Positions 9,912 to 37,035 of a stretch of 39,671 nt of DNA are shown in pieces. The notes under the pieces are model-generated. The model was given only the letters and a program-made list of their open reading frames with translations. It was not told where the DNA came from and made no database searches. This DNA comes from Gemmatimonadota bacterium. Its GTDB lineage: Bacteria > Gemmatimonadota > Gemmatimonadetes > Longimicrobiales > RSA9. The stretch spans positions 1 through 39,671 of the forward strand of contig JAGTUV010000426.1 of the NCBI GenBank assembly GCA_018224305.1, read 5' to 3'. The position numbers and the translations under genes are program-made. Position 1 is the first letter of the stretch. Each line of letters opens with the position of its first letter.

Positions 9912-10430
9912 TCAGTGCCGGTCCCGCCCGCCGCCGCCACCGTGGTCGCCGCTGCCGCCGCGCCCGCCGCCACTGCTGCCGTAATCGCCGCTGCCGCCAC
10001 TGCTGCCGTAGTCGCCGCTGCCGCCGCGCCCGCCGCCACTGCCACCGTAGTCGCCGCTGCCGCCACGGCCGCCGCCACTGCCACTACTGCCGCCACGCCC
10101 GCCGCCACCACCACTGCCGCCACGCCCGCCGCCGCCACCGCCGTAGCCACCGCCGCCGCCACCACCGCCGTAACCGCCGCCGCCTGCACTACCGCCCTGG
10201 CGGCGCGGTGCCTCGGCAGGCGGATTGAGGCGCACGACACTGGCCGCCTTCGGGCCCTTCGGTTCCTCGATGATTTCGAACTCGACTTCCTCGCCCTCGT
10301 AGAGCACCTTGAAGCCGCCGCCGTCAATGGCGCTGTAGTGCACGAAGACGTCGGGGCCACCCTCGCGCTGCAGGAAGCCGTAGCCCTTTTCCTGCGAGAA
10401 CCACTTGACGGTACCGTTGGTACGAGCCAT
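9912..10430 (-). CDS. Cold-shock domain protein with long C-terminal Gly/Arg-rich tail
   Basis: 172-aa product from ATG 10430; the track ORF extends to 10697. It begins [35 protein letters not shown], with RNP1 KGYGF and RNP2 VFVHY. Residues ~70-172 are GGSGDYG / RGGSGGG repeats. AGGAG lies upstream of the ATG. Confidence 0.9.
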
Positions 10431-30293: not shown

Positions 30294-31010
30294 GTGAGGA
30301 ATATGTCGGCGGCGGGCGAGTCGGACAAGGAGCACGGCGCGCCTGTTGCACGCGGGCGTGCGCCCGGCGACATTGAGCGGGCCCGAACAGGAGTACTGGT
30401 GGAGGGAACGCGGCTGGTCCTCTTTGCCGATTATGTCTGCCCCTTCTGCTTTCTGGCAGAAGCCGTGACGTCCCGGCTGGATGACGGGGCGGTGGACGGG
30501 GCGGCGTTCGAGCTCCGGCCGGCGGGCACACCGCTGCCGGATCTCGATGCGGCGTGGCTGCGGGAGGCGTGGACACGCTCGGTCGAGCCGCTGGCGGCGG
30601 AGCTGGGTGTATCGATCACGCGGCCGGGACGTGCAACGCGTACGCGCAAGCCGCACGAAGCGGCCGCGTACGCGCGCAGCGTGGGCCTGCATGCGGCGAT
30701 GCGTTCGGCGATCTACGCCGCGTACTGGCAGCAGGGCCGCGACATCGGCCGTATCGACGTGCTCGTCGAGATCGGGCGGAGCGTCGGCCTGGACCCGGGG
30801 GGTCTCCGGGTCGCACTGGACATCGACCAGTGGACGGCGCGCGTGGACGAGGATGAAGCGTGGGCGGCAGAGTTGGGTCTGGGCGGCGTGCCCGCGTATG
30901 TGCTGACGACCGGTGACGAGTCTGGCACGCGTGTCGCAGCCGGTATCCGCGTCGGGTTGCAGCGGTACGAAGAACTCACAGCGTGGATGGAACGCAACAA
31001 TGACATATGA
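30294..31010 (+). CDS. DsbA-family thiol:disulfide oxidoreductase (FrnE-like)
   Basis: FADYVCPFCF carries the CPFC active site, and GVPAYVL is the cis-Pro loop region. The start is ambiguous between GTG 30294 and ATG 30302. Confidence 0.8.
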   Translation: MRNMSAAGESDKEHGAPVARGRAPGDIERARTGVLVEGTRLVLFADYVCPFCFLAEAVTSRLDDGAVDGAAFELRPAGTPLPDLDAAWLREAWTRSVEPLAAELGVSITRPGRATRTRKPHEAAAYARSVGLHAAMRSAIYAAYWQQGRDIGRIDVLVEIGRSVGLDPGGLRVALDIDQWTARVDEDEAWAAELGLGGVPAYVLTTGDESGTRVAAGIRVGLQRYEELTAWMERNNDI

Positions 31011-31314
31011 GCGGATGACGGCAGCGCCGTCGCGCGAGGTATTGCGCATGGCGGAAGAAATGCTGACGCAGCGGCTGCCGATCAGCAGGACGGGCGGCGA
31101 TCACCACAGCCTCACGCTCGAGGGCGGCGATGGCGCGGTGACCTTCACAGTGCACCGTCATGGTCTCGAGACGCAGGTGCACGCGGCGACCGATCAGCTG
31201 CGCACGTCGCGGCTCGATCAGGATGTGCAGTACTTCATGACGATGCTGCCGTACCAGCCCGGCGATGTGCGGGGCGCGGGCACGGCGCAGCCCGGCGCGC
31301 TGTCGAGGAGTTGA
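31000..31314 (+). CDS. Small hypothetical protein
   Basis: 104-aa product from ATG 31000, overlapping the DsbA-like stop by 11 nt. Third positions are strongly G/C-rich. Its stop lies 1 nt before the GTG of the helicase-like gene. No family recognised. Confidence 0.55.
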   Translation: MTYERMTAAPSREVLRMAEEMLTQRLPISRTGGDHHSLTLEGGDGAVTFTVHRHGLETQVHAATDQLRTSRLDQDVQYFMTMLPYQPGDVRGAGTAQPGALSRS

Positions 31315-31315
31315 G

Positions 31316-32998
31316 GTGGCTGAACGTTTCGAGGACCTCGGCCTGAGCGACGCGATCGTCGAGGCGGCGCGTGCGGCGGGTTACGAACGACCCACGCCGC
31401 TTCAGGCCGCATCTGCGAACGTGCTTCGGCGCGGAGGCAATGTGGTGCTGCACGCATCGTCGGGAGCAGGCGTGGTCGCGGCGGTCGCCATGCCGCTGCT
31501 CGACCGTCTCGTCGAAGGCGACGTTTCCGATGCCGGTCCGCGCGCGCTTGTGCTCGCGCCGACGCAGCAGCGGGCGGAAGCGCTCGCGGGCGGGTTCGGC
31601 GCGCTTGCGGGTGCGACCGGTCTCACGGTGCGTGCAATTGCCCCCGGCTGGCATGCGGCGGGAGGCGATGTGATCGTCACCACGCCGCAGCGCGCGCTGG
31701 AGGCAGTGGAAACGTCCGAACTCAAGCTTGGCGGTGTGGAAGCGCTGGTCATTATGGATGCCGCGGGCACGTTCGCGCTGAACGGTGAGAGTGCGCTCGA
31801 GACGCTCGCGCCGCTCGTGCCGAAGGAGGCGCAGCGCATCGTGACGAGTGCGGAACTGACGGGCGACATCGAGCGCTTTATCGAGGGGCACGCGAGGAAG
31901 GCGCTGACCGTGCCCGCGCGTCCGGCGGCACCGCCGCGCGTACCGCAGACTGCGGAGTCGGCCGGTCAGATCGGCTACATGATCGTGGAAGAGCAGGCCA
32001 AGGCGGAGGTGCTTGCACGGCTGCTCGAGTCGGTGGAGGGAGATGCCCTCGTCTTTACGCGTACCGCACTGCGTGCCGAGCGCGTGCTGCGGGATCTGTC
32101 GCGGCGCGGCATCGCGGATGGCGAGCGCGACATCCGCGTGCTCCCGTTCGACGCGGCGGGCGAGACCGCCAGCCGCGTAGTCAGCTACGACGTCCCGTTC
32201 TCGGCGGAGGATCTGCGGACCATACATTCCGCCGGCGGCACCGTGCTCGCAACGGCGGCGGAGCGCGCGCATTTCCGGCGCATCGCCGCCGAGGTGCCGT
32301 TCACCGCGAAACACCGCCGCGCGCGCCCGCTCGATGGCGGCGCGCTGGACGCGTTCCGCGGTACCGTGAGCGCGGCGCTCGAGGCGGAAGACCTGGATTC
32401 GCAACTGCTCGTGCTGGAGCCGCTGATAGACGAGTACTCGGCGGCGGAAGTCGCCGCCGCGCTCAGTGCACTGCTGCGCCGACGCGCACCCGCCGCGGGT
32501 GCCACCGCCGCTGCTGCTGCACCCGCAGCGGTCAGTGGTGCGCCTCCCGCCGATGCGACGGTCGGCGGGTTCACCCGCCTGTTCGTCAGTGTCGGACTGC
32601 GTGACAACATCCGGCCGGGCGATCTCGTGGGTGCGATCACGGGCGAGGCGAACATCAAGGGCGACCAGGTCGGGCGCGTCGATATCCGCGAGTCGTTCGC
32701 CGTCGTCGAAGTCGCATCCGCCGTCGCCGAGCGGGTGATTCGCGCGCTGAACGGCACCACGATGCGCGGCCGCAGCCTCCGCGTCGACTATGACCGCAAG
32801 GGCGCCGGTGGCAGCGGGGGCGGTCGCGAGAGCCGGGGTCCGGGCGGGTCGGGCGGTCCTCGTGGTTCCGGCGGTCCGCGTGGTTCGAGCGGTCCACGGG
32901 GTCCGGGCGGCGGTTCGGGTGACCGGTCGCGTCCGCCGCGCGGCGAGGATCCGCGTGCGCCGCGGAGCGACCGTCCGCGCAGCCCGCGCGGCCGGTAG
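31316..32998 (+). CDS. DeaD/CsdA-like DEAD-box-fold protein with degenerate ATPase motifs, DbpA-type RNA-binding domain and RGG tail
   Basis: GTG 31316 with GAGGAG 5 nt upstream, giving 560 aa. The Q motif YERPTPLQ is kept. Motif I reads ASSGAGVV (31454-31477) and motif II reads MDAA (31754-31765). The C-terminal FTRLFVSVGLRDNIRPGDLVGAI...RVIRALNGTTMRGRSLRV is a DbpA-like RBD, followed by GGSGGPRGSGGPRG repeats. Confidence 0.85.
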   Translation: MAERFEDLGLSDAIVEAARAAGYERPTPLQAASANVLRRGGNVVLHASSGAGVVAAVAMPLLDRLVEGDVSDAGPRALVLAPTQQRAEALAGGFGALAGATGLTVRAIAPGWHAAGGDVIVTTPQRALEAVETSELKLGGVEALVIMDAAGTFALNGESALETLAPLVPKEAQRIVTSAELTGDIERFIEGHARKALTVPARPAAPPRVPQTAESAGQIGYMIVEEQAKAEVLARLLESVEGDALVFTRTALRAERVLRDLSRRGIADGERDIRVLPFDAAGETASRVVSYDVPFSAEDLRTIHSAGGTVLATAAERAHFRRIAAEVPFTAKHRRARPLDGGALDAFRGTVSAALEAEDLDSQLLVLEPLIDEYSAAEVAAALSALLRRRAPAAGATAAAAAPAAVSGAPPADATVGGFTRLFVSVGLRDNIRPGDLVGAITGEANIKGDQVGRVDIRESFAVVEVASAVAERVIRALNGTTMRGRSLRVDYDRKGAGGSGGGRESRGPGGSGGPRGSGGPRGSSGPRGPGGGSGDRSRPPRGEDPRAPRSDRPRSPRGR

Positions 32999-33012: not shown

Positions 33013-33057
33013 ATGAAAAAGGAGCCGCGAACCCTGAGGTTCGCGGCTCCTTTTCAT
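33013..33057. terminator. Bidirectional intrinsic terminator between the helicase-like gene and hup
   Basis: 13-bp stem GGAGCCGCGAACC (33021-33033) / GGTTCGCGGCTCC (33038-33050) with loop CTGA. It is flanked by AAAAA on the left and TTTT on the right. Confidence 0.85.
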
Positions 33058-33071
33058 CCGTGTGTGAAGGT

Positions 33072-33371
33072 CTACCGCTGACTGGCCGGCTTCACCGCGT
33101 CCTTGAGTGCCTTGCCCGGCCGGAACGACGCGCTGGTCGTTGGCCCGATGCGGATCTCGAGGCCCGTGCGCGGGTTGCGGCCCGTGCGGGCCTTGCGCTC
33201 CCGCGTCTCGAAGGTGCCGAAGCCGGTGATCTGTACGCGATCGCCTTGGCGCAGCGCGTCCGGGATGACTCCGTCTTCAGGGCTGAAAATCGCATCGACG
33301 GCCTTCTGAGCGTCCGCCTTGCTGATGTCCGCCTTGGTGGCCAGCGCCTGTGCCAGCTCCGACTTGTTCAT
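33072..33371 (-). CDS. hup: HU family DNA-binding protein
   Basis: 99 aa. MNKSELAQALATKADISKADAQKAVDAIF...GFGTFETRERKARTGRNPRTGLEI matches the HU/IHF fold and arm motif. GAGGAG lies upstream of the ATG. Confidence 0.9.
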   Translation of the reverse strand: MNKSELAQALATKADISKADAQKAVDAIFSPEDGVIPDALRQGDRVQITGFGTFETRERKARTGRNPRTGLEIRIGPTTSASFRPGKALKDAVKPASQR

Positions 33372-33633
33372 GTGCCGCTCCTCGCTCTCGAGATGATGGG
33401 GAGTCCCGCGATTCCGTGTGTTAATGAAATCCGCGCACGCTCCGACCCGTACAGCCCTCCGCTGCCCGTGGTCTCCGACAGCAACTCACACTTGCGCTGC
33501 GTTCGCCCGCGGAACAAGTTCCGCACGCCGGACGAAGCGGTACGCCGGGCGCTGGCGAGTGCCGAATAGAGTAGGGAGGCCCTCCGGCAACGTCAAGGGA
33601 ACGCCGCCCGCCACCTGCCTCCTGACATCATTC

Positions 33634-34950
33634 ATGGGACCAATGGACGCGACCCGCGGCTCGCTGCGCGACCGCGAGCTGGACGTCGCTCGCGAGATAG
33701 CGAATGCCTTCCTCACGGCGGGCTCGCCCGTCGAGGTCTATCGCCTCGCGCTCGCGCGCGTGACGCCCCTCGTGCGCGCCAGCTTCAGCTCCGTTTTCGA
33801 GCGCGATCCCGACGACCCCGCACTGCTCAAGCTGACCTGTGCAAACAACTGGCCGCAGGCGTCCGCACGCTACCTGGGTCAGCTGCGGCTGCGGGTCGGC
33901 CGTGGCCCCACCGGCGGAGCGGTCGCGCGGATGGAACCGGTCGAGGTGGAGGACGTGTTCGCCGATCCGCGGCTCCGGGAATGGCACGAGCCTGCCCGCG
34001 AGCTGGGGTTCGTATCCCTCATATCCCTGCCGCTCGCGACCGGCGACCGGGCGACGGGCGCGCTGACGTTCTACTTCGATGAGCCTCACCCGTTCGATGA
34101 GGACGAGCGTCACCTGCTGAAGCTGATCGCCGATCAGCTTGCGGTGGCGAGTGCCCGCGTGGCCGCGCTCCAGGCGGAACGCGGGGAGCTGGAGGTACTG
34201 CGCACCGAGAACGCGATCCTGCGCCAGCGACTCGGTGCGAACGCCGACGCGAAGCGACTGAGCGACGAGTTCCTGGCCAACATCAGTCACGAGCTGCGTA
34301 CGCCTCTCACATCGATCCTCGGCTACGCCAGCCTGCTGGCGGAAGGTCAGGCCGGCACGCTGCCGGACGCACAACGCAACACGGTGCTCCGGATCGAGCG
34401 ATCTGCCAATGTGCTGCTCCACCTCATCAACGACCTACTGGCGCTCTCGCAGGTCAAGCTCGGTCGCGCAGCGGTCACCATAGCGCCCGACGATGCCGTC
34501 CACCTCGCCCGCCTGGCACTCGACTCCGCGGGCACTGCGCAACCGGGCGTGCGTGTCACGCTCGAGGCCGATACCGATCGCATACCGATCATGACCGATG
34601 GCGAGAAGGTCGGGAAGATCCTCGAGAACCTTCTCAGCAACGCGTACAAGTTCACGGAGCGCGGAAGCGTGACGCTGACCGTTCGTGACACGACGGAGGA
34701 CGGCGTGCCCGCCGTGGAGTGGATCGTCGAGGACACGGGGATCGGCATCGCGAAGGGGCAGCTGGAAGCGATCTTCGATGAGTTCCGGCAGGTCGACGGT
34801 TCCTCGACGCGCCTGTACGGGGGCACCGGCCTCGGCCTGGCGCTGTGCCGCGCGCTCGCGCGACTGCTCGGCGGCCGGATCACGGTCCGAAGCGAGGAGG
34901 GGAAGGGTTCCCGGTTCCGGGTGGTGGTGCCGGGGACCGTTCAGGGCTGA
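33634..34950 (+). CDS. Cytoplasmic GAF-domain sensor histidine kinase
   Basis: Start at ATG 33634; the upstream part of the track ORF is Arg/Thr-rich noise. It has an N-terminal GAF-like domain. The H-box is NISHELRTPLTSILGY, the N-box LLSNAYKFT, G1 DTGIGI and G2 GTGLGLALCRAL. There is no TM segment and no adjacent response regulator. Confidence 0.85.
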   Translation: MGPMDATRGSLRDRELDVAREIANAFLTAGSPVEVYRLALARVTPLVRASFSSVFERDPDDPALLKLTCANNWPQASARYLGQLRLRVGRGPTGGAVARMEPVEVEDVFADPRLREWHEPARELGFVSLISLPLATGDRATGALTFYFDEPHPFDEDERHLLKLIADQLAVASARVAALQAERGELEVLRTENAILRQRLGANADAKRLSDEFLANISHELRTPLTSILGYASLLAEGQAGTLPDAQRNTVLRIERSANVLLHLINDLLALSQVKLGRAAVTIAPDDAVHLARLALDSAGTAQPGVRVTLEADTDRIPIMTDGEKVGKILENLLSNAYKFTERGSVTLTVRDTTEDGVPAVEWIVEDTGIGIAKGQLEAIFDEFRQVDGSSTRLYGGTGLGLALCRALARLLGGRITVRSEEGKGSRFRVVVPGTVQG

Positions 34951-36848
34951 GAAACGCCCGATCCGGGCGGCTCTCCGGTCCTCCCCCTCGGCATGATACG
35001 CGGCTTCGTCATCGCGGCGGGCGACAGGATCTCATCCAGTTCCGCTTTGCTCATCCACTCCTTCTCGAGCACCAGTTCGTAGACGCCGCGGTCGGTGTCG
35101 AGCGCCTCGCGTGCGACGGCGGTGGCGCGGTCATAGCCGATGTAGGGCACGAGTGCGGTGACGATGCCGATGCTGCGCTCGAGCATGGCGCGGATGTGGT
35201 CGCGGTCCGCGGTGATGCCGACGATGCAGCGCTCGCGCAGCACGATGACGGCCTGGGTGAGCATATCGACGGACTGGAAGATGTTGAACGCGATGACGGG
35301 CTCCATCACGTTCAGCTGCAACTGGCCGGCTTCGGCGGCCATCGTCACGACTACATCGTTGCCGATCACCTGGAAGCACACCTGGTTGACGACCTCCGGT
35401 ATGACCGGATTGACCTTGCCGGGCATGATGCTCGAGCCCGGCTGCATTGGGGGGAGCCGGAGCTCGGCAATGCCTGCGCGCGGTCCGCTCGAGAGCAGGC
35501 GCAGGTCATTGCAGATCTTCGAGAGCTTGACCGCGACGCGCTTGAGCAGGCCGGACAGCATGACGAATACGCCGGTGTCCTGGGTCGCTTCGACGAGGTC
35601 GGGCGAGGTGACGAGGTCCAGGCCGGTGATCTCGCTCAGGTGCGTGCGCACGAGGCCGGCATAGCGGGGATCGGCGTTGATGCCGGTGCCAATGGCGGTC
35701 GCGCCCATGTTGATCTCATGCAGGTGCACTACCATCTCGCGCAGCCGGTCGATGTCCTCGCCGATCGTCACGCCATAGGCATGGAACTCCTGACCGAGCG
35801 TCATCGGCACCGCATCCTGGAGCTGTGTGCGACCCATCTTCACGATGTCCGAGAACTCCTGGCCCTTGAGCAGGAACTCATCGCGGAGGGCGGCGAGTGC
35901 CTGGCTCAGGTCGCGCAGGCCCCAGCTCGCGGCGATGCGCAGCGACGTTGGATAGACATCGTTCGTGGACTGCGACAGGTTCACATGGTTGTTCGGATGC
36001 AGCACGTCGTACGAGCCGCGCGGCTGACCGAGCAGCTCGAGCGCACGGTTCGCGATGACCTCGTTCGCGTTCATGTTCGTCGATGTGCCGGCACCGCCCT
36101 GGATGACATCGACGACGAACTGGTTGTGCAGGTTGCCATCGCGGATCTCGCGGCACGCGCGAATGATCGCGTCCGCGTGGTCGTCCGCGAGCAGACCCAG
36201 GTCGCGGTTCGATTCCGCCGCCGCTTCCTTCACGGCGGCGAGCGCGCGGATGAGGTGCGCGAACTGCGCGATCGGGATACCCGTGATCGGGAAATTCTCA
36301 ACCGCCCGCTGCGTCTGGATGCCGTAGTAGTTGGCGGCCAGGACCTCGCGCTCGCCCAGCAGGTCCTTCTCGCGCCGGACCTCGCCCGAGATGTACGACT
36401 CACCGCGTCCGGTCGCGCGTCCCGATGGCGAACTGAGACGCTCCGCGATCATGCGCGCGGCTGCCGACAGCAGCCGACGGTACAGGTCCGGCCGTTCCTC
36501 CGCGATGTGCGCGAACGCATCGCGCGGTATCTCCAGTACCTCGGCTGATTCAGTGACGAGTGCGGACGTGGAGTGCGGGTAGTCGTCCAGCAGGCTGCCC
36601 TCGCCGAACGAATCGCCGGGACCCATCACGTGGATCACGAGCGGCCGGCCGCGCGGTCCCTTGAGCAGCGAGACGCGACCCTTCAGCAGCATGCCCCAGA
36701 ACCGGCGCGGCTGGCTCTCGTGGAAGATGTACGTGTCGCGCAGATAACCAATGGTGCGCGCGTGGCCGGCGAGATGGTCGAGGTCGTCGGCGGAGAGCTC
36801 GCGCGCGAGTGGATGTGCGCGCAGCATGCGGAGGATGCTGGTATCCAT
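34941..36848 (-). CDS. aspA: Aspartate ammonia-lyase fused to an N-terminal CAP-type cyclic-nucleotide-binding domain
   Basis: 635-aa product from ATG 36848. Residues ~158-635 align by eye along the whole of E. coli AspA: GGAGTSTNMNANEV, MGRTQLQDAVPMTLGQEF, GSSIMPGKVNPVIPE. Residues ~1-137 have the cNMP-binding barrel pattern (IFHESQP...GDSFGEGSLL...ALVTESAEVLEIPRDAF). In the 49 codons upstream of 36848, third positions are only ~59% G/C by hand count, so they are treated as non-coding. Confidence 0.9.
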   Translation of the reverse strand: MDTSILRMLRAHPLARELSADDLDHLAGHARTIGYLRDTYIFHESQPRRFWGMLLKGRVSLLKGPRGRPLVIHVMGPGDSFGEGSLLDDYPHSTSALVTESAEVLEIPRDAFAHIAEERPDLYRRLLSAAARMIAERLSSPSGRATGRGESYISGEVRREKDLLGEREVLAANYYGIQTQRAVENFPITGIPIAQFAHLIRALAAVKEAAAESNRDLGLLADDHADAIIRACREIRDGNLHNQFVVDVIQGGAGTSTNMNANEVIANRALELLGQPRGSYDVLHPNNHVNLSQSTNDVYPTSLRIAASWGLRDLSQALAALRDEFLLKGQEFSDIVKMGRTQLQDAVPMTLGQEFHAYGVTIGEDIDRLREMVVHLHEINMGATAIGTGINADPRYAGLVRTHLSEITGLDLVTSPDLVEATQDTGVFVMLSGLLKRVAVKLSKICNDLRLLSSGPRAGIAELRLPPMQPGSSIMPGKVNPVIPEVVNQVCFQVIGNDVVVTMAAEAGQLQLNVMEPVIAFNIFQSVDMLTQAVIVLRERCIVGITADRDHIRAMLERSIGIVTALVPYIGYDRATAVAREALDTDRGVYELVLEKEWMSKAELDEILSPAAMTKPRIMPRGRTGEPPGSGVSQP

Positions 36849-36933
36849 GTCGTCGGGACGAATGAGAGGAACGTCGGTGACGGCCGGAAGGTAAGCGGAC
36901 GATGCAGGCGAGGGAATGGACGTGCGAACCTTT

Positions 36934-36963
36934 TTGTGGCGTGCGGTAACCGAACGATATAAC
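36934..36963 (+). promoter_or_regulatory. Candidate sigma70-type promoter for the POT transporter gene
   Basis: TTGTGG (36934-36939), an 18-nt spacer, then TATAAC (36958-36963), about 70 nt upstream of ATG 37036 in a locally AT-richer gap. This is pattern matching only. Confidence 0.3.
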
Positions 36964-37035
36964 TTGGCCCGTCCCCGATCGTGACGCACAGGCACGCCGC
37001 GGCGTCAACCGGATACGACCACAGCACAGGCGGAT

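Follow-up and report, generated by a model that had tools for sequence, protein, structure and literature searches.

Degenerate helicase motifs and a conserved RNA-binding domain in a DEAD-box protein family of the Gemmatimonadota

The window analyzed here is a stretch of DNA of 39,671 nucleotides from a Gemmatimonadota bacterium (RSA9, Longimicrobiales; assembly GCA_018224305.1, contig JAGTUV010000426.1, positions 1-39,671). A gene on its forward strand at positions 31316-32998, with a GTG start and a TAG stop codon, encodes a protein of 560 amino acids that resembles a DEAD-box RNA helicase and that we term the pseudo-helicase. DEAD-box proteins are textbook ATP-driven remodellers of RNA, and to our knowledge validated examples that are catalytically dead are rare. 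The reading that we favour, and consider rather probable, is that the pseudo-helicase is a catalytically dead and selectively retained descendant of a DeaD/Hera/CshA-type protein that would bind RNA as a dimer, independently of ATP, and serve as a scaffold or chaperone. The earlier note on this DNA, which was made by reading the letters and their translations, had proposed a candidate pseudo-helicase at this position. The observation is confirmed, since the motif register, the Pfam matches, the AlphaFold2 (AF2) model with its Foldseek matches and the data on the C-terminal tail all agree.

Helicase motifs and domain structure

The N-terminal part of the protein is a RecA1-like domain (31316-31915, forward strand; amino acids 1-200), defined by the Pfam DEAD match, by alignments and by the AF2 model. 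The Q motif is intact, reading GYERPTPLQ (31379-31405). Motif I, aligned to AQTGTGKT, reads ASSGAGVV (31451-31474) and has no lysine. Motif Ia is PTQQRA and motif Ib is TPQR, while MDAA (31751-31762) is aligned to the DEAD of motif II and SAE (31847-31855) to the SAT of motif III. A deletion of eight amino acids in RecA1 leaves an invariant GW where the GG motif would be. This register was derived from three independent alignments, i.e. by HMMER to Hera and DbpA, by MAFFT with canonical helicases, and profile against profile by hhalign. It is the same in all three, and agrees with that given by the earlier note for motifs Q, I, Ia, Ib, II and III; in none of the alignments is there a Walker A lysine or a DExD box that a mis-registration might have hidden.

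The RecA2-like domain (31964-32314, forward strand; amino acids 217-333), located by hhalign, MAFFT and AF2 with Foldseek, is short by about 35-40 residues. Among the parts that are gone are the QxxR region, the whole of motif V (TDVAARGLD) and eight residues of motif VI (HRIGRTGRAG), and a sequence resembling motif IV, LVFTRT, is kept. The absence of motifs V and VI and the shortening of this domain had been suspected before, and can now be described as two defined deletions in RecA2; AF2 predicts a compact RecA2-like domain at amino acids 217-333. Alignment by hhalign of the family with canonical Gemmatimonadota RhlE-like helicases covers amino acids 4-333 with two gaps, at a probability of 99.9% and E = 3e-37.

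The Pfam scores reflect the same state. The DEAD family is matched at amino acids 27-185 with 40.8 bits against a cutoff of 26 bits, compared with 163-174 bits for two canonical controls, namely a RhlE-like helicase encoded at a related locus and the DeaD-like protein of locus L077. The controls also match Helicase_C (PF00271) with 113-120 bits, whereas no match to it was obtained in the pseudo-helicase, even when amino acids 200-340 were scanned alone at E <= 10. Measured against the features that define the DEAD-box group of helicase superfamily 2, the protein thus has the two RecA-like domains and the Q motif, and lacks motifs I, II, III, V and VI together with PF00271.

The core is followed by a helical dimerization domain of the DeaD/Hera/CshA type (32336-32485, forward strand; amino acids 341-390), which AF2 models as three helices. 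The Pfam match to DeaD_dimer (PF25399; amino acids 345-392) is marginal, its 23.8 bits being just above the cutoff of 23, and the family alignment contains a conserved block LLVLEPL...AEVAAALSALLRRR in this domain. Next comes an RNA-binding domain (RBD) of the DbpA type (32570-32791, forward strand; amino acids 419-492), identified by Pfam and by sequence matches in the PDB. The match to PF03880 (amino acids 421-490) scores 84 bits with E = 6e-24. The RBD is the best-conserved part of the protein, with a ratio of nonsynonymous to synonymous substitution rates (dN/dS) of 0.02-0.13, and is modelled with a predicted local distance difference test score (pLDDT) of about 96. The protein ends in a tail rich in Arg, Gly and Pro (32798-32995, forward strand; amino acids 495-560), which is taken as disordered from its composition and a pLDDT below 50. 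Gly, Arg and Pro make up 73% of the last 66 amino acids. Across the family the length of the tail ranges from 11 to 89 amino acids, and one basal clade is tail-less.

The AF2 model as a whole has a mean pLDDT of 83.7. The score exceeds 90 in each of the RecA-like domains and in the RBD, which has a fold like that of an RNA-recognition motif (RRM). The best Foldseek matches of the model in the PDB are DbpA (7pli; E = 1e-23), Hera (4kbf) and CshA (5ivl), and also eIF4A, with E values in the range 1e-23 to 1e-20. The DeaD/CsdA-like order of domains that the earlier note had described is therefore found by Pfam as DEAD, DeaD_dimer and DbpA RBD, and both the RecA2-like domain and the Arg/Gly-rich tail take their places within it.

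Conservation of the degenerate state and the order of motif loss

Searching for homologs gave 573 proteins. The best 120 have 44-81% identity to the pseudo-helicase, and those with names bear the label Longimicrobiales or Gemmatimonadota; a PF00271 annotation is absent from all 120. The altered motifs are conserved as such among these homologs. At the position of the Walker A lysine, 116 of the 117 near-full-length sequences have Val, Leu or Ile. G22, Q30, G50, G52 and the pair Q173-R174 are invariant, and Phe, Leu or Ile is kept at the position before the Q motif. The aspartate of motif II is variable (Asp in 67/117), and no family member, either among the 117 or at the other loci that were aligned, has DEAD at this motif. 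No family member that was tested has Helicase_C.

A scan of one representative genome per GTDB species gave 416 relatives, and the counts of loci that follow refer to the best 80 of these. The degenerate state was found in 78 of the 80; nearly all are labelled Gemmatimonadota or Longimicrobiales, mostly the latter, and the two canonical exceptions are both from Capsulimonadaceae. The reading frame is intact at 78 of the 79 relevant loci, with a single frameshift at L065. One genome (assembly DASVDG01, SMAG_U2027) has two degenerate paralogs, L019 and L025. In a profile search over 1.8 billion cluster representatives (50% identity), motifs V and VI were absent in about 145 of the top 150. Intact orthologs number hundreds and reach down to about 35% identity.

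Substitution rates were compared by the method of Nei and Gojobori. Relative to the closest ortholog (L001), dN/dS is 0.10 overall, with 0.13 for RecA1, 0.10 for RecA2, 0.17 for the dimerization domain and 0.02 for the RBD; relative to the more distant orthologs L003-L005 it is 0.23-0.28. The dS values are about 0.9-1.1 and thus near saturation, so the true ratios may be lower still. The gene belongs to a selectively maintained family with purifying selection on all domains. It is a maintained gene and not a decaying pseudogene, as had been supposed at the outset from the window alone.

Some relatives retain more of the ancestral sequence than the protein in the window, and some less. GxGKT is kept at the loci of Longimicrobium and Longimicrobiaceae and in the tail-less basal clade. 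These proteins have VDGA for DEAD, lack SAT and TPGR, have the same RecA2 deletions and score 58-67 bits for Pfam DEAD. The scores for this family hence form a gradient, from 163-174 bits in the canonical proteins, through 58-67 bits in the GKT-retaining ones and 41 bits in the window protein, to no match in L081/P0483. In a rough neighbour-joining tree rooted on the canonical proteins the GKT clades are basal or interspersed, which suggests that the lysine was lost after hydrolysis had gone, possibly more than once. We note that P0476, P0482 and P0489 form a tail-less degenerate subgroup with the same shortened RecA2 and a motif I of G[EG]GSGKE or SEGAGLR, in which the lysine is kept in two of the three and the threonine is lost.

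In remoter relatives (P0475, P0483, P0486, P0487, P0494, P0497 and P0501; e.g. L081, 5001-6623) the Q motif and the P-loop are missing altogether. They retain the RecA2 deletions, the dimerization helices, the RBD and the Arg/Gly-rich tail, and Pfam detects only DbpA in them. P0483 (assembly GCA_038228795.1) adjoins a divergent class I/II aminotransferase, like the gene in the window. We propose that the ancestor of the family would have lost hydrolysis first, with motifs II, III, V and VI, that the Walker A lysine would have gone later in some lineages, and that the Q motif and P-loop were probably lost in the remoter relatives.

The family may accordingly be regarded as a natural series of stages. 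A large bacterial lineage appears to have shed hydrolysis, then the residues that bind nucleotide, and then the Q motif and P-loop, with the RBD, the dimerization helices and the scaffold of two RecA-like domains kept throughout under purifying selection. Such a series could reveal which functions of a helicase (tethering, chaperoning, scaffolding) need no ATP. It also flags a systematic misannotation, for in public records these degenerate proteins are filed as active helicases under the names 'ATP-dependent RNA helicase DeaD' or 'DEAD/DEAH box helicase'.

Relation to known helicases and probable function

The pseudo-helicase has RecA1, RecA2, a helical dimerization domain, an RRM-like RBD and a basic tail in the same order as Hera, CshA and DeaD. 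Hera is its best PDB match by sequence (4kbf, E = 6e-18), and the canonical DeaD-like protein of L077 has the same Pfam architecture with the addition of Helicase_C. Unlike these enzymes it lacks the ATPase motifs (the lysine of motif I, and motifs II, III, V and VI), its RecA2 is about 35-40 amino acids shorter, and it has GW for GG. The RBD is homologous to those of DbpA and YxiN, with E = 4e-8 to 7e-8 for the PDB entries 7bbb and 7pli and E = 8e-6 for the YxiN RBD (2g0c). Both of these helicases act as monomers, are active ATPases without a dimerization domain, and are specific for hairpin 92 of the 23S rRNA. The best NCBIfam match is to DbpA (NF008744), with 124.4 bits against an equivalog cutoff of 524; DeaD/CsdA (NF008642) scores 77 against 989, and CshA (NF053631) 77.4 against 646. 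On its sequence the pseudo-helicase should not be filed as DeaD, CshA, Hera, DbpA or YxiN, because it fails both the catalytic-motif and the equivalog tests.

The features of a pseudoenzyme are all found here, i.e. the fold is retained, the catalytic motifs are lost and the gene is under selection. The dead DEAD-box proteins that we found described are eukaryotic, the example being Utp25/Def (PMC9539457). This 'pseudohelicase' of the small-subunit processome has a DEAD-box fold with dispensable or degenerate helicase motifs, and is a structural factor in RNA processing (PMC9539457). The likeness is conceptual, being that of a DEAD-box scaffold without catalysis, and no specific relationship is shown; Utp25 differs in being eukaryotic, in having an N-terminal accessory region, and in having neither a DbpA RBD nor a dimerization domain. 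The present family arose independently of Utp25, in bacteria, from an ancestor of the DeaD/Hera type. No description of it was found when the literature was searched for bacterial DEAD-box pseudoenzymes and Gemmatimonadota helicases.

If the favoured interpretation is correct, the pseudo-helicase would be unable to hydrolyse ATP or to drive ATP-dependent strand separation. As a dimer it would present two RBDs and two basic tails that could tether or bridge structured RNA, the most likely target being rRNA or some other abundant RNA with structure. The roles that the earlier note had suggested, those of a regulator, an RNA clamp or a ribosome-biogenesis factor, are likewise candidates. The remodelled RecA core would then be a static scaffold or a platform for interaction with protein, for which a plausible docking partner is a 104-amino-acid protein that may be translationally coupled to it (see below).

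Several points weigh against this interpretation. Both RNA binding and dimerization, and also the choice of RNA target, are matters that we infer, the first two from domain homology only. A partnership with the 104-amino-acid protein is suggested by the adjacency of the genes, and the gene for that protein was not found beside the basal GKT-retaining clade. The invariant glutamine of the Q motif and the two invariant glycines of the P-loop could mean that some binding of a ligand persists, and the core may still make some contact with RNA through what is left of motifs Ia (PT..RA) and IV (FTRT). Lastly, the tree by which the losses of motifs were ordered is a rough one.

The invariant residues of the pocket also speak for a rival reading, that of a switch that does not hydrolyse, in which the degenerate pocket binds an adenine nucleotide or other small molecule and so controls the binding of RNA or of a partner. 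Besides the invariance of Q30, G50 and G52 and the retention of Phe, Leu or Ile before the Q motif, the sister clades that keep GxGKT in the absence of DEAD, SAT and motifs V and VI suggest that nucleotide binding may have outlived hydrolysis. Yet the Walker A position is hydrophobic in 116 of the 117 clade members and the motif II aspartate is variable, and the remoter relatives have dispensed with Q motif and P-loop while keeping the rest of the protein, so that the core function of the family does not depend on the pocket. We regard such a switch as unlikely. Retention of catalysis by means of non-canonical residues is a very much weaker prospect. The fold is preserved and modelled with high confidence, and the general point has been made that some proteins called pseudoenzymes proved to be active (PMC10211241). 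However, the Walker A lysine, the glutamate of motif II, motif III, and the segments of motifs V and VI with their arginine fingers are all missing, and no conserved acidic or basic pair that might substitute for them is apparent in the family alignment; the physical absence of the motif V and VI segments makes an active enzyme very unlikely.

The protein might instead be a decoy that occupies the site of a DbpA-type RBD without remodelling it, thereby antagonizing active helicases or RNases or timing what they do. The RBD is indeed the most strongly conserved module (dN/dS 0.02-0.13), and canonical DEAD-box paralogs coexist with the pseudo-helicase in the same lineage. In one clade a canonical RhlE-like helicase is encoded about 4 kb upstream of the pseudo-helicase on the opposite strand (L060, 920-2206; L066, 1807-3723; L074, 984-2582; all on the reverse strand). 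By motif inspection these helicases carry AQTGTGKT, PTREL, TPGR, DEAD, SAT and HRIGRTGR, and RhlE-like orthologs are widespread in the records of Longimicrobiales and Gemmatimonadota. But the canonical Gemmatimonadota helicases that were found are of the RhlE-like kind and lack a DbpA RBD, so that none of them was identified as competing for the same site. A mere decoy, moreover, would not need the strong purifying selection that acts on the two RecA-like domains. We therefore consider this quite unlikely. The loss of motifs and the frameshifted ortholog L065 might suggest that the gene is a pseudogene in decay, or that the motifs were mis-registered. Either is refuted by the identical register in three independent alignments, by the intact reading frame with its Shine-Dalgarno sequence and terminator, by dN/dS of 0.1-0.3, and by the hundreds of intact orthologs.

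Gene organization and the upstream 104-amino-acid protein

The open reading frame extends from 31265 or 31316 to 32998 on the forward strand. The most likely start is the GTG at 31316, because a Shine-Dalgarno sequence, GAGGAG (31305-31310, forward strand), can be read directly 5 nt before it, and because the N-termini of homologs coincide with this point in alignment. The Shine-Dalgarno sequence lies within the 3' end of the upstream reading frame. Beyond the stop codon there is a hairpin typical of a bidirectional intrinsic terminator (33016-33054), of the form A5-GGAGCCGCGAACC-ctga-GGTTCGCGGCTCC-T4, that is common to the pseudo-helicase and the convergent gene for HU. It has a perfect GC-rich stem of 13 bp with a folding energy of -34.8 kcal/mol (z = -7.45). 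A consensus scan detected neither a terminator nor a relevant promoter; it missed the hairpin because just four T nucleotides follow the stem. The good Shine-Dalgarno sequence and strong terminator credited to this gene by the earlier note are thus real, the one by reading and the other by folding.

A conserved, uncharacterized gene of 104 codons, overlooked in the earlier note, lies immediately upstream (31000-31314, forward strand). Its stop codon, TGA at 31312-31314, ends 1 nt before the start of the pseudo-helicase, which makes its product a candidate operon partner and suggests translational coupling in an operon-like pair. The protein has no family assignment, giving no significant sequence match in Pfam, NCBIfam or the PDB. 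It is strongly conserved, with 342 homologs of 70-92% identity in which HRHG, TDQLRTSRLD and PYQP are invariant. At about 27 loci the gene directly precedes the pseudo-helicase (gap of 0-30 nt), and at 45 it is no more than 4 kb away. In the clade of L019 and L025 it is 1.5-1.9 kb upstream, and the stretch between the two genes has no Pfam match. AF2 predicts a small alpha+beta fold with a pLDDT of 86, for which Foldseek finds weak matches to KA1, SRPBCC/Aha1-C and BamC-N (E >= 4e-3, template modelling score about 0.5).

The sequences HRHG and ATDQLRTSRLD superficially resemble motif VI (HRxGR) and motif V (ATDVAARGLD), and we considered whether the protein might be a detached piece of RecA2 that provides these motifs in trans. 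This was rejected; the hhalign probability against canonical helicases is 0.65%, the two motifs occur in the opposite order, and the fold predicted for the protein does not resemble RecA.

A more elaborate proposal, which we offer tentatively and hold to be improbable as a whole, is that the two proteins form a hitherto unrecognized two-component module specific to Gemmatimonadota. The dead RecA core would be a docking or regulatory platform, possibly one that senses a ligand through the Q motif and G-x-G, and the RBD and tail would deliver the 104-amino-acid protein to a specific structured RNA. The module would then be a bacterial, ATP-independent counterpart of Utp25.

On the other side, the convergent gene for HU (33072-33371, reverse strand; Bac_DNA_binding, Pfam E = 3e-30) adjoins the pseudo-helicase, as had been pointed out before. 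It has the same relative position at 66 of the 79 loci. The link between the two genes is no more than a conserved synteny across strands, and HU is not a member of the operon. Downstream of HU is a cytoplasmic histidine kinase with GAF, HisKA and HATPase domains (33418-34950, forward strand; Pfam), found in this position at 51 of the 79 loci. No response regulator was present among the neighbouring reading frames scanned with Pfam. A gene at 34941-36995 on the reverse strand encodes, by its domains, a lyase of the fumarase/aspartase type (Lyase_1 and FumaraseC_C) with an N-terminal cyclic-nucleotide-binding domain. This fusion is unusual, and is conserved at about 34 related loci.

Elsewhere in the window, at 9912-10430 on the reverse strand, there is a cold-shock-domain protein of 172 amino acids, recognized from its sequence, which had previously been remarked upon for a Gly/Arg tail similar to that of the pseudo-helicase. 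The C-terminal tail is indeed present; it is about 100 amino acids long and has much Gly, Arg, Ser and Tyr, with GGYGGGG and RGGSGG repeats, in which it resembles the glycine-rich cold-shock-domain proteins of plants.

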